Positions 4,399 through 42,357 of a stretch of DNA of 64,000 nucleotides are shown in pieces. The stretch is from an uncultured Holophagales bacterium (GTDB lineage Bacteria; Acidobacteriota; Thermoanaerobaculia; Multivoradales; UBA5704). The stretch's first letter is position 1. Each line of letters begins with the position of its first letter. The position numbers were made by a program, and so were the translations under genes. The stretch covers positions 128,001 through 192,000 of the forward strand of contig CAWJGT010000025.1 of the NCBI GenBank assembly GCA_963842525.1. The letters are read 5' to 3'. The notes under the pieces were generated by a model. It was given only the letters and a program-made list of their open reading frames with translations. It did no database searches and had not been told where the DNA came from.

Positions 4399-7300
4399 AT
4401 GCCCGACCTCCTCCGTAGGGCTGTTCTTATCCTTCTCGTGTTCCCCGCTCTCGCCGGAGCCGCGCAACCGGTGCAGGTGGCCGACCTCAATACCCGGGCG
4501 GACAACGGCAGCGGCCTGGCGGCAACGGAGATGCTGGACATCGACGGCGTCCTCTATTTCGTCGCGCGGGATGCGGCCCATGGCCGGGAGCTGTGGCGCA
4601 GCCAGGGGACATCGGGGACGACACGCCTCGTCCGGGACATCTGTCCGGGCCCTTGCGACTCCAGCCCCGAAGCGCTCGCGGAGCTCGACGGGGATCTCTA
4701 CTTCTTTGCCAGCGATGGAATCACCGGCCGGGAGCTCTGGCGCAGCGACGGCACCGCTGCGGAGACCCTTCTCGTCCGGGACATCTGCCCGGGGGTGTGC
4801 GGCAGCACTTCGGAGCTGGCAGGCTTCGATCGAGTGCCGCCGAGCACGCCGCTCGTACAAATGGCCGGCAAGCTGCTCTTCAATGCCTATCCTGGTGGCC
4901 TCTGGCGTACGGACGGAACCCGCGCCGGGACTCAGCCGTTGCCGGATCAGCCCTTCGGCAAGATTTCCGACCTGATCTCGAACGGGTCCATGGTGTTTTT
5001 CCGCGCCGAGTCCAGCGGGCGTGGCGTGGAGCCCTGGAGGAGCGACGGCACCGTGGAAGGAACCTCGCTGATCCAGGATCTGTGCCCCGGCTCCTGCTGG
5101 TCCGGCGACCAGAACTCCGGCTGGATCACGACGTCCGGAAGCGATCTCCTGGCCTGGCGCATCGCGCCGCCTCCCCCCCAGGGTGGCTTTTGCCGCGAGC
5201 TTCTGAGGAGCGCCTCGAGCGTCTCCGCCCTCAGTCCGATCGGTGAAGTCTGCGGGAGGTCCGACGAGCCGCCGCCACGTCTGGTGGAGCATGACGGGGC
5301 CTGGTATTTCGGCTTCGACAAGCAGCTCTGGCGAGCGGATTCCTCCGGAATCACCCTGCTCGTCGTTTTTTCCGACACTCCCTCCGAGCTGACCCGCCTG
5401 GGCGCGAAGATCTACTTCGCCGCCAGCTCCGGCTCCTCCGGCCGCGAGCTCTGGGTGACCGACGGCACCGCTGTCGGCACGTACAGGGTCCGCGACATCC
5501 GGCTTGGCGCCGGCTCGTCGAGCCCGGAGAGCCTCACGGTGATGGAGGGCCGGCTGTACTTTGCCGCCGGCGGATCGGAGCTTCTGGGTGAGCGACGGCA
5601 CCGAGAGCGGCACGGTCCGCCTGATGGAAACCGCCGTCTCCGGCCCGGGTGACCACCAGCCCGCGAGCCTGACGGCTGTGAATCAGCGGCTCTTCTTCAC
5701 GGCCGAGCGGACCGGCACCGGGCGCGAGCTGTGGATCACCACCGGCACCCCCGGCGACACCTACCTGGTGCGGGACATCCACGCCGATCCCGGCTCCGCG
5801 GACCCGCGGGGGCTCCGCCCCTTCCGTGGCTCGGTCCTGTTCGGCGCCAGGGACGAGAACGCGGTCGGCGGCGTGACGCACAGCCTCCATCTCTCCGATG
5901 GAACGGCCGCCGGCACCATCCAGTTGGCGGAGCAGGCCGGGGTGCCCGAGCTCGGTGCGCGGATGGGCAACGACTACTTCGTGACCGACAGCACCGGTCT
6001 GTGGATCACCGACGGAACCGCCTCCGGCACGCGGCGGTTCGAGCCGCATCTTCAGGTGACAGGCCTGATCACCGCCGGCAACAGGCTGCTCCTCGGCGCC
6101 GAGCGGCAAGGCGTGGAGGAGGAGGCCGGCTTCGAGCTCTGGGCCTCCGATGGAACCTCCGCCGGCACTGCGCTGATGAAGGACATCCAACCGGGCCTGG
6201 GAACAGGGCCGTCGCCGAAGCCCCTTTCCTCGCGTCCGCGCTACTTCACCCCACTGGGCCTGCCAGGATCGACCGTGCTCTTCGCCGCGACCACCAGCAC
6301 CGAAGGGACCGAGCTGTGGCGGACAGACGGCACGGCGACCGGCACCATTCTGGTCAAGGATCTCTACCCAGGGCGCTTCGGCTCATCTCCCTCCAACCTC
6401 ATCTCCCGCGGGCCGGCGGCCCTGTTCACAACCTACGGCGAAGATTCCGGCGAGGAGCTTTGGCAGAGCGACGGCACCACAGGCGGCACCTTGCAGGTCG
6501 CCGACCTCGTCCCGGGAATCGACAGCTCTTCGCCCAGCGACCTGACCGTCTTCCAAGGTCAGATTTTCTTCTTCACGTACGACCGACAGGGCCGGGATCT
6601 GCTCTGGAAGAGCGACGGCACGCTCCCGGGCACGGTCCTGGTCCAGGAGGTCGCGGCGGCGGGGCTGCCCCGGACCGGCCACCAGCCGGTGGTCGCCGGT
6701 GACCAGCTCTTCTTCACCGCCTGGAGCGACGATGCCGGCCAGGAGCTGTGGGTGAGCGACGGCGCCGGCGCGCGCAGGGTCGCCGACATCCTGCCCGGTC
6801 CGGCCAGCTCGTACCCCCGGTGGCTCACCGCGGCCGGCCGCGTCGTGCTTTTCGCGGCCGACGACGGGTCGACGGGAGGCGAGCTGTGGGTGAGCGACGG
6901 GACCGCCGCCGGCACCTCCCGCGTGCAGGACCTCGCTCCGGGGCCCGACTCCTCGGCGCCGTCCGAGATCACGGTCGCGGACGGGCGCATCTTCTTTGCG
7001 GCGACCTCCCCGGAAGGCCGCGAGCTCTGGTCCCTCCCGAACATCGCCGTCATCACGCCTTGTGTCCCCGGGCCGGACCGCCTCTGCCTGGCCGGCGGCC
7101 GGTTCGAGGTCGCGGTCCGCTGGCGCGACCAGCACAACGGGGGTCTGAAAGGAGTGGGGCAGGCCGTGCCGGAGAGCCTCGAATCGGGGTTCTTCTGGTT
7201 CTTCGATCCGGCCAATCTGGAGCTGGTCGTCAAGGTGCTCGACGGCCGGGAGATCAACGGCCGCTGGTGGGTGTTCTTCGGCGCCCTCACGGACATCGAG

Positions 7301-7819
7301 TACGAGGTGACCGTTACCGACCACGAAACCGGGCAGGTCCGCACCTACCGGAACCCGGCCGGCACCTTCTGCGGCCAGGCGGACACGACAGGCTTCCCCG
7401 GAGAAGGCGGGAAGGTCGTCGAACCGGACTTCGAGCTGCTCAACGCTGCGGCCATGGAGCTGCCGCCGCCGCAGGAATCGACGGGCCCATGCCTTCCCGG
7501 AGCCGAGGGCCTCTGCCTGTTCGGCGGACGCTTCCACGTCGAGGCGCGCTGGAAGACGGGCACGGAAGAGGGGCAGGCCGGCGCGGTGCCGCGGACGGAT
7601 GCGACCGGCTCGTTCTGGTTCTTCGATCCGGCCAACGTCGAGCTGTTCGTCAAGGTCCTGGACGGCCGGCCCCTGGGCGGCAAGATCTGGTTCTTCTACG
7701 GCGCCCTCTCCGACGTGGAGTACTGGATCACCGTGACCGACATGCAGACCGGCGCGGTCAAGACCTACCACAACCCGCCGGGGACGTACTGCGGGAAGGC
7801 GGATACCAGGGCGTTCTGA
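4399..7819 (+). CDS. Secreted ELWxxDGT-repeat protein with two C-terminal Cys-flanked domains; frameshift near 5582
   Basis: Many ELWRSDGT/ELWVSDGT repeats across ORFs 4399..5652 and 5561..7819. Signal peptide. Removing one T (GAGCTTCTGG to GAGCTCTGG) restores ELWVSDG. Confidence 0.85.
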
Positions 7820-7885
7820 CCTCTCTCTTCCCCCCTCTCCCGGTTGGGGGGAGAGCGATGGGTCAGGGGGGCCAGGGGGGTGAGG
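7820..7885. repeat. Copy of dispersed palindromic repeat family CCCTCACCCCC(T)GGCCCCCTCTCCC
   Basis: Reverse-complement copy between convergent genes; related copies at 30454-30672, 43174-43230 and 52074-52125. Confidence 0.65.
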
Positions 7886-8636
7886 ATTCGAACCGCACGA
7901 CCACCGGCGCGTGATCGCTGGTGCCGACGCTGGCGAGGACCTTCGACTCCTGCGCGGTCGCGGCGAGGGACTCGCTGGCCAGGATGTAGTCGATCCGCCA
8001 GCCGATGTTGCGCTGGCGCATGTTCCGCCACGGCGCCCACCAGGTGAAGAGGTCGGCGTTGTCCGGATCGAGGGCGCGGCCGACGTCGACCAGCCCCTGG
8101 GCGAGGAGGTCGGCGAAGAGCTGGCGCTCCTCGGGGAGCTGGCCGATGATCTTGGGCTTGCGCTCCTTGGGATGGACGTCCTGGTCGGACCGCGTGACGT
8201 TCAGGTCGCCGCAGAGCAGAAGGCGCCGGCCCGAGCGGTGCACCTCGCCGGCCCAGTCCCTGAGGGATTCCAGGAACCGCATCTTGGCGGCGAAGTCCTT
8301 GCCCCCGTTCGGCACGTAGACCGAGGCCACCACCAGGTCGCCCGCCTCGGCCGTGACGATCCGCGTCTCGTGGTCGAAGGCGGGATGGCCATAGATGGGG
8401 ATCTGCGGGAAGGCGTCCCGTCGGAGGTTGAGGCTCACCCCGGAGTAGCCGCCGGCGCCATGCCAAAAGCACCAGTAGCCGTCCAGGCTGCAGATCGTCT
8501 CGTTGAGCTGGGCCGGGGCGGCCTTGATCTCCTGCAGGCAGATGACATCCGGCCGGTCGCGGCCAACCCACTCCAGGAACTGCTCCTGGCGGGCGCGGAT
8601 TCCATTGACGTTCCAGGTGGCGACAGTCAGGCTCAT
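7863..8636 (-). CDS. xth: Exodeoxyribonuclease III / AP endonuclease
   Basis: TWNVNGIRAR, DVICLQEIK, GYSGV, SVYVPNG, GDLNV, GWRIDY and SDHAPV motifs. Confidence 0.95.
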   Translation of the reverse strand: MSLTVATWNVNGIRARQEQFLEWVGRDRPDVICLQEIKAAPAQLNETICSLDGYWCFWHGAGGYSGVSLNLRRDAFPQIPIYGHPAFDHETRIVTAEAGDLVVASVYVPNGGKDFAAKMRFLESLRDWAGEVHRSGRRLLLCGDLNVTRSDQDVHPKERKPKIIGQLPEERQLFADLLAQGLVDVGRALDPDNADLFTWWAPWRNMRQRNIGWRIDYILASESLAATAQESKVLASVGTSDHAPVVVRFESSPPWPP

Positions 8637-8901
8637 GCCGGGATCATAGCGGAGGCGCGCCGCAACGGAAAACGGTGCCGGGAAAGCGGAACTGGTGCCC
8701 GGGAAACAGGGACCGGGTCCGCCGGAACACAGCAGACCCGTCCAGGCGGACGGCGGAGCCCTTGGACCCGGGGGCCGCCGTCCTTCTCTGTTGTCAAAGA
8801 GCCTGACGCTCCCGATCGTCTTACTCGGTCGATCGGTATCATCGCGCCTCCTTCAATATGCGGTAGACTGACACACTCGACGGGAAAATTCAACGAAGCC
8901 C

Positions 8902-8930
8902 TTGACATAGGGCAGCAAGCCGTGCAGTCT
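8902..8930 (+). promoter_or_regulatory. Possible sigma70 promoter for ORF 8998
   Basis: TTGACA-N17-CAGTCT; perfect -35, weak -10. Confidence 0.3.
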
Positions 8931-8997
8931 ATGCGCACGTCAGGCGCCGCTTCCGGCACCGGACGGTCGAGCCCTCGGGCTCAAGAAGGAGAAGCAA

Positions 8998-9372
8998 ATG
9001 TCTGAACGTACCTATGCAGGGAAACTGGGCGCTCTGGCACGGTTCATCGCCGCGCTGCTCGCCAACGCTGCCAACATCCCCCACCTGGACGGCATTCGGG
9101 TCCGGATCGAGGCGATCCTGGCCGAAGCGCAAGGAGTCGCGCGGGAGCAGGCCGCACTCACCGCCAGCAAACAGGAGGCGAGCCAGCGAATCAGGGCGCT
9201 GCTCACCGAAGGCGAGAGGCTGGCGACCGCGGCAGGCAAGGTCCTCCAGGAGCACTACGGCCTGCGATCGGAAAAGCTCGCGGAATTCCACCTGCAGCCC
9301 TTCCGCGGCCGCAAAGCCAAAACGCCGCCCGACCCCATCACTCCCGCGGCACTCGCGATCAATCCGCAGTAA
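8998..9372 (+). CDS. Hypothetical helical/coiled-coil protein, 124 aa
   Basis: AAGGAG RBS before ATG; helical sequence ending HYGLRSEKLAEFHLQPFRGRK plus a Pro-rich tail. Confidence 0.7.
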   Translation: MSERTYAGKLGALARFIAALLANAANIPHLDGIRVRIEAILAEAQGVAREQAALTASKQEASQRIRALLTEGERLATAAGKVLQEHYGLRSEKLAEFHLQPFRGRKAKTPPDPITPAALAINPQ

Positions 9373-9389
9373 GAGCGCCTAACAAAACC

Positions 9390-9490
9390 GGCCTAACGGG
9401 CCGGGAGATTCTAGCCCAGGGCATCTGAGGCCGAAGGCCGATGCCCTGGGTCAATAAGCCCCTACAACCCTGCGGTCTGAAAGACCGCGA
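9390..9490. repeat. REP-like cluster of short hairpins
   Basis: GGCCTAACGGGCC, CCCAGGGCATC...GATGCCCTGGG and GCGGTCTGAAAGACCGC stem-loops. Confidence 0.55.
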
Positions 9491-9545
9491 GAGCTCTCCA
9501 GTCCCAGACGTAGCGTTGGTCAAACTCGACCTCACGGGCCTTTCC

Positions 9546-9582
9546 CCGGGGAGCGTGCCCGCCACGCTCCCCCTTGTTCCGC
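9546..9582 (+). repeat. Leader hairpin shared with array 2; may act as a terminator
   Basis: CCGGGGAGCGTG-CCCGC-CACGCTCCCCC-TTGTTCCGC; near-identical reverse-complement copy at 39582-39619. Confidence 0.8.
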
Positions 9583-9610
9583 GCCCTTCTCCACAGGCAT
9601 CCACCGCTGT

Positions 9611-9951
9611 TTAAATTATCTGGCGCCGAGAACGTTATCCAGCTCAGTGTAAGCGTATCCGACACAGATAAGCATATCCAAGCCGGATAAGCGTATCTGG
9701 CGCGGATAACACTATCCGGCGCGGATAACGCTATCCACGCCAGTGTAAGCTTATCCAGCGCAGATAAGCTTATCTGGCCCAGATAACACTATCTGCCGCA
9801 GATACCGTTATCCAGCACGGATAAGCTTATCCGGCGCAGATAAGCTTATCCAAGCCAGTGTAAGCTTATCTGGCGTGAATAACACTATCTGGCGCAGATA
9901 CCGTTATCTGAGCCAGTGTAAGCTTATCCAGCACAGATAAGCTTACACTGG
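9611..9951 (+). repeat. Palindromic tandem array 1: about 17 units of GATA-N4-TATC (variant GTGTAAGCTTATC) with 7-bp linkers
   Basis: Parsed by hand; 19-20 bp period; ends in perfect inverted repeat CCAGTGTAAGCTTATC-N7-GATAAGCTTACACTGG (9913-9951). Confidence 0.95.
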
Positions 9952-10129
9952 GCAGATGGCAGTATCCCCAACCGATGCCTCCATCCCGTGAATACGCGCC
10001 TATGGACGATAGCAGCTCCACCCCGTCAGTTACATGGAACCGCAAGAACGATATGTAGACCCGTCTTCGCTGGGCTGCGTCAGAAGCCGCTTTTCACGCC
10101 TTCAGCCGCGATCCTCTGCGGCCGGCACG

Positions 10130-10200
10130 TCAGTCCTGAACGACGTAGATGGGCCTTCAGCTGCGGCGCCAGCCGTCCGCTGCAAGGCTCGGGCTGGGCG
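10130..10200 (-). other. Degenerate attC-like site after the HNH gene
   Basis: Minus strand GCCCAGC...CTTGCAGCGGACGGCTGGCGCCGCAGCTGA...GTTCAGG; resembles attC inner boxes, outer cores imperfect. Confidence 0.5.
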
Positions 10201-10801
10201 CAGAATTTGGCAGCCAGTTCTGATAGCGTAATAGCTCCATGATTAGACTGTAGATCTCCGGCCGGGCAAAACTCAGCTGCTTACGATACTCAATTGCGAA
10301 CTGCCTCTTCTCCTCCTGTTCACGTGGATCTGGAAGGCCACCTACGCTGATCCCACTTCTAGAAGGCATAGCTGTCAACTCGGCGATGCGCTTACAATAA
10401 AACTGTCCCATCTGAAGGTGGAAGACGAAATCGACCAGCTCTTGTGCTCTTCTTGCTAAGTCATCAATCCGCTCCGTTTCGGCAATATGGGCTAAGAATC
10501 TGAACCGGGAAAATAGAGGCTCGAACTGAGGAGAGAGTATCACCGGGTCTTTGTACTTACGAAAAAGGGCCAGCTTCTCGGGACTCGTTGGAACAGTCGG
10601 ATTGTGGTAATCAGTGAGATGGCAATTAGGACAAATTGGCAAGAGATTATCGAGAGTATTGTTGCTTGGGTCCTCATCGATGTGATGGATTTGCGGCCTA
10701 TCAGCTCCACAGATCGCGCAGCGATGATTGAACTCACGTAACACCGATTCCCTGACGGCCGGTGCAATCGGTATACGTCTTTTCTTTTCTGGCACAGTCA
10801 C
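10157..10801 (-). CDS. HNH endonuclease domain protein (cassette-like)
   Basis: CAICG...IHHID...N...NLLPICPNCH; AT-richer than flanks. Confidence 0.85.
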   Translation of the reverse strand: MTVPEKKRRIPIAPAVRESVLREFNHRCAICGADRPQIHHIDEDPSNNTLDNLLPICPNCHLTDYHNPTVPTSPEKLALFRKYKDPVILSPQFEPLFSRFRFLAHIAETERIDDLARRAQELVDFVFHLQMGQFYCKRIAELTAMPSRSGISVGGLPDPREQEEKRQFAIEYRKQLSFARPEIYSLIMELLRYQNWLPNSAPSPSLAADGWRRS

Positions 10802-10821
10802 GGCTTGAACGCTCCTCTTAT

Positions 10822-10885
10822 GCCGCCAACGTTGCCGGCGATGAGTGACGGCTTGCCGTCCGCTCGACCGCCTGGCACACCGGAG
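10822..10885 (-). other. Degenerate attC-like site
   Basis: Minus strand CCAGGCGGTCGAGCGGACGGCAAGCCGTCACTCATCGCC...CGTTGGCGG; imperfect hairpin ending in a GTT core. Confidence 0.55.
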
Positions 10886-10900
10886 TAGTTATCAAGACGG

Positions 10901-11203
10901 CTACTCCATGACGATCTGAATCACCAATAGAATCGTGTACACAAAAAAGACAGCAGCCGCAAGCAGCTTCACGGCCGCGCTGGTTGACGTTATGTTCGGT
11001 CCCTTAGCGGCAAGCAGGCCAAACAGAATTGCAATCGTTAAGTGCTTTGATACTCTAACCCAACTTTCTCCCTCTGAGAATGCTAGAAAGGCAAAAAATA
11101 GGGACGCCATCGAAACAAGAATAAAAGCAATACGAAGGCCGCCCCACCCTGGCCGAGAGCGCCTTTCCTTATCCTGGCCTTCTACTATCCACCAAGGGCT
11201 CAC
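10901..11203 (-). CDS. Small membrane protein (about 3 TM helices)
   Basis: Three hydrophobic segments; lies between attC-like sites. Confidence 0.55.
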   Translation of the reverse strand: MSPWWIVEGQDKERRSRPGWGGLRIAFILVSMASLFFAFLAFSEGESWVRVSKHLTIAILFGLLAAKGPNITSTSAAVKLLAAAVFFVYTILLVIQIVME

Positions 11204-11257
11204 CGCGTTTTATCCTTTGAGGGCGCTTCCAATCACCAAGTCCTGCTGAACCGTGTT

Positions 11258-11340
11258 CTCCCGCGAAGCGACGGCGGCCACGAAACGTGCCGACTACCGC
11301 GACGCCCCGCCGCCGTTCGCTGCAGCGCATAGTTAAGGCG
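11258..11340 (-). other. attC-like site, right end eroded
   Basis: GCCTTAAC (contains the stop of the upstream gene) then ATGCGCTGCAGCGAACGGCGGCG...CGTGGCCGCCGTCGCT; typical attC inverse core and stem. Confidence 0.65.
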
Positions 11341-11899
11341 TTTTCGGTTCATTGGATTTGTTGGGTGGTTGGGTAACCTTCTTTTGAGGTTGGACCTGCT
11401 TGACCTCGTCGCGAAAAATCGAAGGTTGAATCTTCTTGAGCTCGTAGTGAAAGACGCTATTGTCTTGAAAACCTGGGAATTCGCCAAAGGTTTTCGGCGG
11501 CTCTACGGCGCTGGCTTGGATCCCGACCAAGGTCAGTGTCCCATCCTCAATCTTGAAGATGGCGAAGACCACTTTACCGATGTCATCGCACGGTTGCGGA
11601 CAATCTTTGATTGTGGCGTGTAGCTGCTGTGGGTATGTGCCTGCAGGCAGTGTAAATGTCGTCTCAAACCAAAAGTTCGTGTCTCGGCTAAAGTGGAGTG
11701 AATTGCCGGTGATCGTCACGGTGATTTTGCCGTCCGACTCATTACCCACCATGACTCCCTCCCATGTTCCTTGGAGAGGTTGTAGTTCTGCAGCGATTGG
11801 TTGGTTGGTCGGGCCAGCGGCTTGCGCGCAAATAACCCCACAAGGCATGAGGATGGAAAGCATCGTGACGGCGAGTGTCATTTTGATGGTCATTCTCAT
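11333..11899 (-). CDS. Secreted beta-rich protein, TIGR03067-like
   Basis: Signal peptide, ELQPLQGTW and AIFKIEDGTLTL motifs; start taken at MRMTIK. Confidence 0.6.
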   Translation of the reverse strand: MRMTIKMTLAVTMLSILMPCGVICAQAAGPTNQPIAAELQPLQGTWEGVMVGNESDGKITVTITGNSLHFSRDTNFWFETTFTLPAGTYPQQLHATIKDCPQPCDDIGKVVFAIFKIEDGTLTLVGIQASAVEPPKTFGEFPGFQDNSVFHYELKKIQPSIFRDEVKQVQPQKKVTQPPNKSNEPKTP

Positions 11900-12099
11900 C
11901 GGACTCTCTTTTTTCGGTTGCTGTCGGATAAAGGATTCGTGCAGAAAGCTGCGGCGGGAAATCACGCATGAAGGTGTCCTGGAAGGAGGCTCAAGCCCTG
12001 GCAAGTCAATGGCGGCGGAAGAGTGGTCCCGGTTGTTGAAAAAGAGCCTCGGCGGCGAAGCCCGGCCGCTGCAAGCCTCGGATTCTCGCCAGTGTGTAA

Positions 12100-12312
12100 T
12101 CATGCCGACAGCGGAGTCAGTCGGTACACGCGCCCAATCTTGCTTGCTTCTCTGACATCGCCGTGGCGAAGGGCTTCACGGGCAGCGTCGAGCTTCTCAG
12201 CATCCTCAAGTGACAAATACGGGGACCACTCTTCCTCTGCCTCGATGAGATCGACCTCAACCTCCGCAGCGTACTCTCCTTCATGAACGAACTTCCTGTG
12301 ACGCCTGCTCAT
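12100..12312 (-). CDS. Putative antitoxin partner of the DUF4258 protein
   Basis: 70 aa acidic protein, ATGA-coupled to the upstream DUF4258 gene. Confidence 0.65.
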   Translation of the reverse strand: MSRRHRKFVHEGEYAAEVEVDLIEAEEEWSPYLSLEDAEKLDAAREALRHGDVREASKIGRVYRLTPLSA

Positions 12313-12635
12313 TGCCTTCTCCTACGTTTGTAGTCGTCGGTCCATTTCTCACGCTTTGGCCTATACGCCGTCACCACTACGGCTGGGGATGATTTGCCGC
12401 TCGGGATACCCCACACAACATGAATCGGCGTGCCGCCTTGATCCCTCTGCAACACCAGAACGCAAGGGCCTTTCCGATAGTCTGGGTAGTCTTCAATCAC
12501 CTCACCCTCGTGGACACCAGCGACAACATCACGGACGAGAATGCCATCGGCTGCGAGTTCGTCGTAGCCATGCTCCGAGACCCGCACATCACGGCTCGCA
12601 ACCAAGATGACGATCTGTTCAAAAGTTCGGCTCAT
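12309..12635 (-). CDS. DUF4258 domain protein (putative RNase toxin)
   Basis: SEHGYDEL...GEVIEDYPD...PIHVVW...VVVTAYRP...W pattern. Confidence 0.8.
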   Translation of the reverse strand: MSRTFEQIVILVASRDVRVSEHGYDELAADGILVRDVVAGVHEGEVIEDYPDYRKGPCVLVLQRDQGGTPIHVVWGIPSGKSSPAVVVTAYRPKREKWTDDYKRRRRQ

Positions 12636-39061: not shown

Positions 39062-39505
39062 GCCAGTGTAAGCTTATCCGCGCCAGATAAGCTTACACTG
39101 GCGGAGATAACGGTATCCGCGCCAGATAGTGTTATCCACGCCAGATAAGCTTACGCTGGCCTGGATAAGCTTATCTACGCCAGATAAGCTTATCTGCGCC
39201 GGATAGTGTTATCTGTGGCAGATAGCGTTATCCGCGTTGGATAGCGTTATCTGCGGCAGATAAGCTTACACTGGCCCGGATAACGCTATCTGCGCCGGAT
39301 AAGCTTATCTGCGGCAGATAGTGTTATCCACGCCGGATAGTGTTATCTGCGGCAGATAAGCTTACACTGGCCCGGATAACGCTATCTGCGCCGGATACGC
39401 TTATCTGCGGCAGATAGTGTTATCCACGCCGGATAGTGTTATCTGCGCCAGATAAGCTTACACTGGCTCGGATAACGCTATCTGCGGCGGATACGCTTAC
39501 GCTGG
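39062..39505 (-). repeat. Palindromic tandem array 2: 23 units, inverted relative to array 1
   Basis: GATA-N4-TATC / GATAAGCTTACAC cores with 7-bp linkers; 96-bp higher-order repeat; terminal 17-bp perfect inverted repeat at 39062-39102. Confidence 0.95.
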
Positions 39506-39581
39506 CGTGCGTGGACGATCCGCGGAGGATGCTGCGGATCTGTGCCGCCGGTCCGGCGCGGTGGGAACGTTCGGGAGGAGA

Positions 39582-39619
39582 GCGGAACAACCGGGGAGCG
39601 TGGTGCGCACGCTCCCCGG
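39582..39619 (-). repeat. Leader hairpin shared with array 1; probable terminator of the TonB-dependent receptor gene
   Basis: GCGGAACAA-CCGGGGAGCGTG-GTGCG-CACGCTCCCCGG, about 22 bp past the receptor stop codon. Confidence 0.8.
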
Positions 39620-39641: not shown

Positions 39642-42357
39642 TCAGTACCGCACGATCGCCGACAGCACGTAGGACCGCGGCGAGGAGAAGGTTACGCCAC
39701 GGCCGAATTCCGGGTTGTTCGGCGCCGTGGCGCGGCCGAGGATCAGCCGGTCTTCGACCTCCGTGGCCACCTGGTCGTCCAGGACGTTCAGGATGCGGGC
39801 TTCGAGCTCCAGGCCGGCGGGGCCGAGAGGAAATTCGTAGGAGGTCAGCAGGTCGATGTTCAGCCAGTCTTCGGTCCGCCGCGAGCCGGCCGACTCCAGG
39901 TAGCGGACATAGGTTGCGCTGGAGACGTTGGCATCGGGCAATCCGCGGGCCTCCCAGGCGCCGCCGCTCTGGTAGCGGACGTAGGTGCCGAGCTGCACCC
40001 GCTCGAGCGGGCGCATCGCGGCGAAGATCTTGGCCACGTGTGTGCGGTCGCCACGCAGCAGGCCGTCCCGGTTCTCGTTGATCAGCACGCCGGGGCCGTC
40101 CTGGAGGAACGACGAGTTGTAGAACAGTGAGTTGGCGTAGTCGATGTCCCAGTTGCCTTCGAGCTGGCTCCAGGTGTAGCTGGCGCTGACCGACAGGCCG
40201 TAGAGGCGGTCGTTGGGCAGCCGGTTCACCTGCAGGGTGGCCGCCTTGTAGCGGCGGTAGGCGCCCGGGAGCTGGCCGACGCGGAACGGGCCGTTGCCCA
40301 GGCCGTCCCGGCTGATGTCTTCCATGATGTCGCCGACGTCGCGGTATTGCCCGTAGACCTCGGCCGACCAGACCGGGCCGAAGGGGCGGGCATAGCCGAC
40401 GAGGAATTCATCGGTGTACTGCGGATCGATCCCCTTGTCGACCGTCTTGGTCTGGGTGTTGGCGGCGGGGACGTCGCTGAGCAGGTTGCCGTTGGCGTCG
40501 AAGGTCGCCCGGGTGGTGAAGAGGCGGGTCGGCGAGCCGGCGCGCACCAGCGACTTGTTCTCGGTGTTGTAGTAGCGGCCCACGTAGGCGTAGAGCTTGT
40601 CTCCCAGGTCCAGACTGGGAACGAAGGCGACGCCCAGCCGGGGCTGGATCTGCTGGTCCCAGTCGAAGGTCAGGATTTTGACCTTGGTCTTGGTGCCCGG
40701 CGTGGCGCCCAGCCCTTCGCCGAAATAGTCGTCCTTGTTCAGCGCCAGGCCGGCCGTGATGGTGGTCCGGTTGCCGATGGTGAGCTGGTCCTGCAGGAAG
40801 ATGCCCCAGGTCTCGCTGCGGCCGGTGTGGGGCGGCTGCTGGGAGTTGTAGGTGGCGGTGAAAAGGCGCGTGGTAGGGTTCCAGGTGATGGTGCCCCAGC
40901 CGTTGGCCTGCCGCTCGAGCCGCTCCGAGCTCTCCTCGTAGCTTACGCCGAAGCGCAGGTCGTGGGTGTTGCCGAACCAGGTCTGGAAGGTCTGGTAGGA
41001 AGCCTTGGTCTGATCGCGCAGGAAGTCCTGGTCGTTGATCGCCAGGCTGGCGCCGCCCACGGTCTGGCCGGCGGCCGTGGCGCCGCCGACGATGCGGTCG
41101 GCCGTGGTGACGAACGCGCCGACCAGGTCGGGGCGCGCCGCGTTGAAGGCCGGCCGGTAGCCGAGGCCGGTCAACGGGTCGGTCGAGTTCTCTTCCTTGT
41201 CGTGGTGGTACTTCACCTCGACGAGGCTGTCGGCAGTGACGTTCCAGGTCCAGCTCGCGGTGCCCAGCAGGAACTTCGTCGAGTCGTCGCTCCCCACGCC
41301 CGGGTGGGCGTTCGCCCCGACGCCGGCGTTCTCGCTGGTCGACTCGCGGGAGCGGACGGCGGCCGACAGGTATTGGCTCGAGTGCGGGTTGGCCGTCAGC
41401 TTGAAGAAGTACTCATCCGTCTTGATGTCGAGGTCCGGGACGGTGCCGAGGTTGTTGCGCCGCTCGGTCGTGGTGGTCGAGGGGAAGCTCGCCGAGCCGT
41501 AGAACCAGAAGTGGTCGCGCACGATGGGTCCGCCCAGCGAGGCGGCGGGCCCCTCCCTGTCGATGGTGTTCTGGATGTTCTGGTTCTTGTTGTCCGACAC
41601 CCAGTCGGCCGGCTGGTACTCGAAACGGGCCTGGCCGTGGAACTGGTTGGTGCCCGACTTGGTCACCGCGTTGACCACCATGCCGCCGGTGCGGCCGAAC
41701 TCTGCGGTGATGCCTCCCCGCTTCAGGCTCACCTCGTCGATGTCGATCTCCGAGATGTTGGGGAGGATGTCGCCGTAGTGCGGATTGGTGATGTTGACGC
41801 CGTCGACCAGGTAGGTGTTGTCCATCCGCGAGCCGCCGGCATTGGGGGAGGTGCGGGTGGACGGGGCCTGCGCGACGCCGGGGGCGAAGCTCGAACAGGC
41901 CCTTGTAATCCCGGGCGAGCGGCAGCTCCTCAATGGCTTCCTGGGTGAAGTTGACCTGGGCCTCGGTCGACTTGACGTCGATGATGGGTACGGCCGCGGT
42001 GACGGTGATCTCCTCGGACATGGTGGCACTGAGGCTCAGATCGACCTGGGTATCCTTGTCGAGGGAGACGATGGCCGGCCTCTCCGCCATGCCCATGCCC
42101 GAGAGCTCGGCCGAAACCTGGTACGGGCCGGGGGGCAGGCGGGGGAACTGGAAGACACCGTCCGGGCCGGTGACAGCGGATTTACCGGCCGGGAGGAGCT
42201 CGCCGCTCACCTGGACGCTGACGCCGGGCAGCGGCTCGCCGTCGCCCGAACGGACGACGCCGGAGATGGAGCCGGTCTCCGCCGCGAAGACGGGGACGGC
42301 AAGGAGCGGGACCAGAAGCGGCCAGAGCCATGCAAAGCGTCGGGACCTGGGGTGCAT
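39642..42357 (-). CDS. TonB-dependent receptor (Oar-like, N-terminal carboxypeptidase-regulatory domain); frameshift near 41890
   Basis: Signal peptide, GSISGVV, EEITVTA, NTYLVDGVNIT, AEFGRTGG.VVNAVTKSGTN, C-terminal aromatic residue. Confidence 0.9.

Follow-up and report, generated by a model that had tools for sequence, protein, structure and literature searches.

What are the polar tracts of short palindromic repeats that occur twice, in opposite orientation, within one stretch of an acidobacterial genome? The question is raised by positions 9546-9951 of a 64,000-nt stretch, which we call the window, from an uncultured Holophagales bacterium (Acidobacteriota, Thermoanaerobaculia; assembly GCA_963842525.1, contig CAWJGT010000025.1, referred to as C25, positions 128001-192000; other contigs are cited in the same form). 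The genome comprises 9.95 Mb in 34 contigs with 67.5% GC. An earlier note, made from the letters alone, had described here an element present twice, consisting of a leader hairpin, an array of GATA-N4-TATC cores and a terminal hairpin, and had considered a protein-loading array, a multi-hairpin RNA or a non-autonomous mobile element. We found that the tracts are part of a gene-plus-array module of soil Acidobacteriota, in which the array accompanies a small gene coding for a protein of 124 aa. The module is undescribed: the literature searched (for the motif, for Thermoanaerobaculia tandem repeats and in broader terms) yielded no description of it, in agreement with the note, which had recognised no known family.

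The anatomy of the two tracts was largely as first described. Tandem Repeats Finder reports a period of 19 bp in both, with 17.2 copies at 9616-9945 and 22.4 copies at 39069-39499, as well as higher-order periods of 58, 77, 96 and 115 bp. With the terminal palindromes included, array 1 occupies 9616-9951 on the forward strand (about 17 units) and array 2 occupies 39063-39499 on the reverse strand (about 22 units). The window contains 26 exact GATA-N4-TATC cores, of which copy 1 has 10 and copy 2 has 16; chance would yield 0.05, and none of 100 shuffles contained as many, which bears out the two tracts of 19-bp period, the second inverted. The three landmarks said to be common to both loci were all located at both: the hairpin GGGGAGCGTG-N5-CACGCTCCCC at 9548-9572 and 39593-39617, the motif GCATCC at 9597-9602 and 39527-39532, and the 39-bp distal palindrome CCAGTGTAAGCTTATC-N7-GATAAGCTTACACTGG at 9913-9951 and 39063-39101. 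The leaders between hairpin and array, each holding its GCATCC, span 9573-9615 (forward) and 39500-39592 (reverse). A position matrix of 206 units from 14 arrays gives the consensus C-G-Y-R-GATA-A-S-N-N-TATC-Y-R-S for units of GATA arrays, with GATA and TATC invariant to at least 92%. The exact 7-bp variable spacing that had been claimed holds for canonical units, which measure 19 bp; units of the GTGTAAGC variant measure 20 bp, hence spacings of 39, and nearly all 7-bp linkers equal CG(G/C)CGCG altered by CpG-to-TpG or CpA changes, so that they derive from one sequence. The description of the tract as non-coding, polar, dispersed and other than an array of clustered regularly interspaced short palindromic repeats (CRISPR) is likewise supported. 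An open-frame test for coding was uninformative at 67% GC, at which even 20-bp-period arrays read open.

Other claims had to be revised once the whole genome was considered. It contains 209 GATA cores in 34 clusters, 16 of which are arrays (at least three cores), in place of the two copies first reported. The flanks of these 16 arrays, together with a BLAST search of window positions 7001-12500, revealed that the entity repeated in the genome is a cassette of about 1.4 kb (8694-10077 in the window), with about 300 bp containing two hairpins and a TTGACA box, followed in order by the 124-aa open reading frame (ORF), hairpin, leader, array and a tail of about 125 nt. In an alignment of 8 copies the upstream part (8694-8997, forward) shows two GC hairpins, the conserved TTGACA box, a 5' leader and a ribosome-binding site; homology to the other copies begins at about 8694-8780, and a sigma-70 scan called no promoter in 8600-10200. 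The tail (9952-10077, forward) is common to 3-4 other copies at 82-88% identity, and GATA and TATC are roughly three times better conserved.

The small gene (8998-9372, forward, in the window) is the sole ORF family conserved around the 16 GATA arrays and lies, intact or broken, directly upstream of nine of them; no other recurrent neighbour gene was present in 97 loci. The view that the flanking genes are unrelated is thus wrong for copy 1. The hairpin of copy 2 (39593-39617, reverse) lies 25 nt past the stop codon of an unrelated TonB-dependent-receptor-like gene (39642-42029, minus). Copy 2 is an orphan which retains hairpin, leader and array only, with neither gene nor tail; it has lost its small gene. 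Polarity is strict, as all 40 ACACTATC cores point in the same direction within their own array in the 12 arrays that have any such core. The GCATCC motif before the first unit, found in both window copies, occurs in its exact form in 8 of the 16 array leaders. The flipped terminal unit, regarded earlier as a defined distal end, closes 5 of the 16 arrays and is missing from 11; the five are closely related copies, to which the shared terminal inverted repeat is confined, so that its presence in them reflects shared descent and does not count as independent evidence.

Nor does the hairpin appear to be the leader of the array. A fuzzy search located 30 hairpin loci in the genome, 13 behind a family ORF, 9 beside GATA arrays and 8 in both situations. 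The distance from the stop codon to the 10-bp GC stem is 10-21 nt in 12 of the 13 gene-linked copies, and five paralogues carry the hairpin without a GATA array; because of this placement we assign it to the small gene, as what its position indicates to be a terminator-like hairpin. At these five paralogues it stands independently of arrays, an outcome that the earlier note had itself named among those that would refute its description of the element. The window hairpin of copy 1 (9548-9572, forward) has a 10-bp GC stem and a 5-nt loop followed by CTTGTTCC, a T tail too weak for a simple terminator scan, by which the window hairpins were not called. Clear T runs follow GC stems at the same place in other subfamilies.

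That gene and array belong together is best seen beyond the GATA subfamily. A protein profile gives about 43 family ORF matches in this genome, a few frameshifted loci being counted twice, and 26 of the 43 have an array downstream, starting from -21 to +457 nt relative to the stop codon. The chance of an array within 750 nt downstream of a given gene is about 1.3% by simple arithmetic (169 arrays in 9.95 Mb). All 26 linked arrays lie 3' of their gene. Period (19-21 bp or a multiple), length (200-500 bp) and site after the terminator are kept across subfamilies, and the unit sequences are entirely different (GATAAGCTTATC, GCAAGCTTCCCTGG, GAAGTACTTC..AGAAATTTT, CCAAATTTTCTGG and others). One unit, GCAAGCTTC(C/G)CTGGCCCGTC, is present in about 20 copies at two loci; CGCTGGCCCATGTAAGCTC, TTTTCGAAGTACTTCAGAACT and CCAAATTTTCTGGACCGGTC characterise other subfamilies, and yet another has 42-bp units with a GGGCAG-N3-CTGCCC hairpin. 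Of 24 distinct unit consensus sequences, 9 have perfect palindrome arms of at least 5 bp, compared with 10% of shuffles; palindromes are enriched among units but not universal.

The family extends to relatives of this bacterium. Among near-length proteins 660 homologues were found at E≤1e-3, forming 490 clusters at 50% identity; their names are all 'hypothetical' or spurious coiled-coil, and the named ones originate from Thermoanaerobaculia or Acidobacteria metagenome-assembled genomes. In a sample of 301 genomes taken across the class, eight had the family, all of them from one bacterial family, to which the arrays too are confined within the searches made. A profile search of 61 genomes of this Thermoanaerobaculia-type family found it in 51, representing 10 of 11 genera, with 4-50 matches per genome, many of which sit at contig ends; the small gene was found by the profile in none of the 10 genomes of the genus here labelled g10. 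At 54 loci from other genomes the array lies downstream in 32, upstream in 12 and in neither place in 11, with one locus having both. The upstream cases come mostly from genus g9, in which about 130 nt separate the end of the array from the start codon; that adjacency is kept in spite of this shift is more readily explained by a cis-acting DNA site than by a 3' untranslated region. One g9 locus (L027, G236:C61, about 800-1310) has two inverted half-arrays forming a large composite palindrome. A strict pattern of three cores with N7 linkers was found in 0 of 40 relatives; the pattern was too strict, because in a same-genus genome (locus L069) the GATAAGCTTATC core recurs at a 20-bp period.

The protein is confidently predicted to be a three-helix bundle. 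Its AlphaFold2 model, based on 81 homologues, has a predicted local distance difference test score (pLDDT) of 93.5 and shows an antiparallel arrangement of three long helices (residues 6-22, 28-53 and 58-87), followed by a short helix (92-97) and a proline-rich tail in extended conformation. The best-conserved stretch of the alignment is HYGxRSEKLxEFxxQPFRGR. We considered its RGR motif as an AT-hook and dropped this reading, since several subfamilies have units without a run of four A/T. The protein is also predicted to form a homodimer: the interaction score (ipSAE) was 0.61 versus 0.00 for the best control, with at least 94% contact agreement over three runs and a partner pLDDT of at least 80, and calibration of the method had placed 20 of 30 known homo-pairs and 1 of 23 single chains at this mark. 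Searches of Pfam, NCBIfam, PHROGs and PADLOC gave no match above cut-off, a sequence profile against the PDB gave coiled-coil noise only, and Foldseek gave no PDB hit for the model at E≤1e-3. A wide VIA-align search returned generic three-helix bundles only, the best (Z 9.8) being a designed one, and in the ESM Atlas only nameless Acidobacteriota clusters matched. Neither a ribbon-helix-helix nor a (winged) helix-turn-helix fold was recognised in the Pfam or structure searches. The three fused or longer forms that were found have no domains. Ratios of nonsynonymous to synonymous substitution (dN/dS) among gene copies of the GATA subfamily range from 0.33 to 0.95; for the window gene compared with its paralogues they are 0.33-0.53.

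How might gene and array work together? The reading that we prefer, tentatively and with confidence short of even, is that the small dimer binds the DNA of the arrays, much as a centromere or an iteron array is bound, except that no motor gene is present and that the chromosome carries dozens of diverged copies. The module comprises a putative promoter region, the 124-aa gene, its terminator-like GC hairpin, a leader of 40-70 nt and 15-22 head-to-tail units of 19-21 bp, each unit of the GATA subfamily bearing GATA-N4-TATC. Dimers would sit next to one another on successive units and so cover the array, which would become a defined nucleoprotein block beside the gene, such as small centromere- and iteron-binding proteins build on plasmid arrays. 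Each paralogous protein would match its own unit sequence, and proteins encoded elsewhere would bind orphan arrays such as copy 2 in trans. The predicted dimer suits the dyad symmetry of the GATA-N4-TATC core. As to the purpose of such a block, we infer that it may act as a roadblock or insulator, in the pairing of loci, or in titration. A bolder form of this proposal, which we consider unlikely, would see here a new class of chromosomal protein-DNA modules, with dozens of small dimers per genome, each polymerising on its own array of about 20-bp period, a new DNA-array-binding fold, and orthogonal, self-addressed landmarks for locus pairing or positioning, convergent-gene insulation, or replication and transcription roadblocks.

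Several findings weigh against array binding. The predicted bundle of the putative array binder is generic, and no DNA-binding fold was recognised in it. One gene copy of the GATA subfamily has a dN/dS of about 0.9, and about half of the gene copies of this subfamily are truncated or frameshifted while their own arrays are intact. Gene and array duplicate together, and linkage within a subfamily is for this reason not independent evidence. Palindrome arms of at least 5 bp are absent from 15 of the 24 unit consensus sequences. Unit variation, moreover, is almost purely CpG decay: positions 17-18 of GATA-array units read CG 78, CA 60, TG 60 and TA 2 times, and CCGG, CCAG and CTGG occur 45, 38 and 30 times, respectively. 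Because neither GATA nor TATC contains CpG, their invariance is weaker evidence for selection, and their constancy may be partly mutational. The same CpG-to-TpG or CpA variation hints at hypermutability of the cytosine-methylation type in this organism.

The plain CpG decay spectrum and the persistence of arrays next to broken gene copies also speak for the main rival explanation, in which the arrays are tolerated or selfish satellite DNA at gene ends. Palindrome-bearing units would expand behind terminators by slippage or unequal exchange, with no sequence-specific partner, and the linkage would mean that gene and array were co-duplicated in a lineage that fills 3' gaps with repeats. The higher-order periods noted above, together with the differing unit order between copies, point to rapid block duplication. 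Moreover, tandem arrays of this kind are abundant: the genome has 249 tandem-repeat regions of at least 150 bp, 169 of them with a period near multiples of 20.5 bp, and only about 26 of these approximately 169 arrays adjoin family genes. The two largest classes (63-bp, 31 loci; 62-bp, 19 loci) have no family genes, which leaves the idea of one array class per cognate gene unsupported. Thirteen arrays stand behind genes of an unrelated TPR-like family, and only one of these is shared with a family gene. The density of arrays is 1 in 660 kb in two g10 genomes, which are gene-less, 3 in 400 kb in a carrier and 17 per Mb here, all of them small counts. What this explanation does not account for is that an array accompanies 60% of family genes where chance would give about 1.3%, that the linkage is retained across subfamilies with unrelated units and across 10 genera, that in g9 the array has shifted upstream with adjacency kept, and that a period of 19-21 bp is found in all classes. 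We judge it somewhat unlikely, though nearly as probable as array binding.

Some features of the wider set of arrays deserve a record of their own. The 62-bp class carries palindromes with 8-bp stems, and examples of the 169 arrays are C3:18697-19100, C3:776096-776684 and C32:133130-133422; one 62-bp array adjoins a Y1 transposase gene at C32:133626-133973. The TPR-like proteins have 350-580 aa and a C-terminal motif resembling ...ALLLFQEAARRE..T. The 13 arrays behind their genes (e.g. C11:140736-142415, C6:176971-178653 and C9:238300-239959) begin 4-420 nt past the stop codon, and the array at C9:239702 sits between a TPR-like gene and a convergent paralogue of the small gene. Tandem Repeats Finder output also contains CRISPR-like long arrays with constant repeats and periods of 65-67 and 75-79 bp (C3:1741273-1745385 and C14:160507-167348).

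A role at the RNA level we regard as improbable. Transcription would either read through the hairpin or start in the leader, and the array would act as a multi-unit RNA that is bound or processed by the small protein, as in type III toxin-antitoxin systems, or as an RNA sponge. The strict polarity of the units would fit such a role, as would the terminator between protein gene and repeats, which type III systems also have, and the conserved arginine-rich motif followed by a disordered tail in the protein. Polarity, however, is inherited with the gene and is hence not independent evidence. The possible RNA stem of a GATA unit amounts to four A-U-rich pairs, and the positions flanking it are not complementary: A4-C17 is the commonest combination (92 of 206 units), with a Fisher odds ratio of 0.46, contrary to pairing. 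Whole-array folds reach z-scores of about -13.5 on both strands, which results from the self-complementarity of the repeats and does not argue for a function. Of 46 arrays drawn from many subfamilies, 25 folded better as the antisense and 21 as the sense strand, so no strand-specific RNA constraint is seen. The order of gene and array is the reverse of that in ToxIN, the units have 19-21 and not 34-36 nt, and ToxN, AbiQ or PADLOC matches were not found. An Rfam search of 8500-10800 at E≤1 gave only sub-threshold miRNA and snoRNA noise. The multi-hairpin RNA proposed in the earlier note is thus unsupported.

Highly improbable, in our opinion, is that the stretch from hairpin to terminal palindrome is a non-autonomous mobile element with defined ends which inserts behind genes: copies 1 and 2 do share exactly this stretch, copy 2 stands behind an unrelated gene, and the absence of a family gene within 1.5 kb of xth in four of four same-genus genomes implies that the module comes and goes, but the cassette ends show neither target-site duplications nor matching terminal inverted repeats, the unit usually repeated is the whole 1.4-kb cassette with promoter, gene and tail, the terminal palindrome is missing from 11 of 16 arrays, no neighbouring gene proved to be conserved, and no transposase is linked, the genome's Y1 transposases being flanked by a different repeat. 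The xth orthologue is full length in these four genomes; only xth aligns, its flanks are not syntenic, and no empty site is definable. None of the 20 Y1_Tnp matches in the genome lies beside a GATA array, and the one on C7 goes with the repeat described next.

Between the stop codon of the small gene and the hairpin of copy 1 lies a dispersed repeat of 168 nt (9373-9540, no strand assigned), of which the genome has about 50 copies. It is an insertion outside the module: soil-metagenome contigs join 9372/3 to 9542/6 without it, these contigs being short at the locus, with none spanning the array and the parts they leave uncovered uninformative. The repeat often occurs in inverted pairs and also flanks three Y1_Tnp (PF01797) genes at C34:527792-531498; because the same repeat flanks these genes, it looks like a solo end or a miniature derivative of a Y1-transposase element. 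Elsewhere in the window, a REP-like repeat of about 57 nt (7828-7885), with more than 200 copies of 80-95% identity on all contigs, lies just past a large repeat-protein ORF (5561-7819). Directly past the cassette tail is an HNH-motif ORF (10157-10801, minus; weak Pfam match, E 0.002-0.03). Farther on, 11432-11949 is 95.6% identical to C34:602189-602706, and 12050-12500, part of the segment 12050-12635, is 92% identical to C9:1074861-1075310. These duplicated segments suggest that the region past the cassette may be an island-like patchwork.

If the proteins do bind their arrays, the family would be a large, diversified and wholly uncharacterised group of sequence-specific array binders, numbering 490 clusters and, in soil bacteria that are abundant, 15-50 copies per genome. 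Natural orthogonal pairs of protein and array would be available by the dozen, and the marking and insulation of bacterial chromosomes could be approached in a new way. If the arrays are satellites only, they are a class of 19-21-bp tandem repeats that is unusual, specific to this lineage and disruptive to short-read assembly. In either case the link between gene and array makes an anonymous repeat testable, a single purified protein and a single DNA fragment being sufficient.

It remains to compare the module with known systems. In CRISPR arrays, repeats of about 23-50 bp alternate with unique spacers of much the same length, and cas genes are linked. The module resembles them in having a leader followed by a polar array of partly palindromic repeats, but its period is 19 bp, its 7-bp linkers are variants of one sequence, and no cas gene is linked. 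Iteron/Rep origins combine direct repeats of 17-22 bp with an adjacent Rep initiator gene and an AT-rich region for unwinding. The period fits; there is, however, no Rep-like gene here, and the chromosomal copies number 16. In type III toxin-antitoxin systems the array lies upstream of the toxin gene and has 2-6 copies of units of about 34-36 nt. The combination of a repeat array with a protein gene, a terminator between them and a diversified family is common to the module and to the ToxIN, CptIN and TenpIN loci (see also PMC3401426). Here, however, the order is reversed, with 19-21-nt units in 15-22 copies, the protein is a predicted helical bundle without a ToxN/AbiQ/CptN/TenpN-type match in Pfam or PADLOC, and no RNA-structure signal is seen.

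Repetitive extragenic palindromic (REP) sequences and bacterial interspersed mosaic elements (BIME) are, according to PMC3733652, imperfect palindromes with a GTAG or CGTC tag, associated with a Y1 transposase (RAYT) that is flanked by the repeats. The likeness lies in the repetition of imperfect palindromes, about 20-40 bp long and at times clustered, in extragenic 3' regions (same source), and in the fact that the Y1 transposases of this genome have flanking repeats of their own. The units of the module differ in forming direct polar tandems, not head-to-head dimers, and neither a GTAG nor a CGTC tag is seen in the logo of the 206 GATA units. The GATA arrays have no Y1 transposase next to them; a conserved gene other than a transposase is linked to them instead. 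The module thus lacks what defines CRISPR, type III toxin-antitoxin, REP/RAYT and Rep/iteron systems alike.

Plasmid centromeres come closest to the array-binding reading that we tentatively prefer. Arrays served by small dimeric binders are known as parC/ParR (R1, pSK41), sopC/SopB (F), parH/ParG (TP228) and tubC/TubR, and the centromere of pSK41 is made of 20-bp tandem repeats. The module differs from them in having no ParA, ParM or TubZ gene nor any other conserved neighbour, and thus no motor gene of a partition system, in occurring as dozens of copies per chromosome, in its predicted long three-helix bundle, in which no ribbon-helix-helix or winged-helix fold was recognised, and in the position of the array, usually behind the terminator of the gene whose product is only a putative binder. 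In common with them, a small protein predicted to dimerise is encoded beside an array of 10-20 short repeats whose period is about two turns of the helix, and unit sequences have diverged among paralogous systems.

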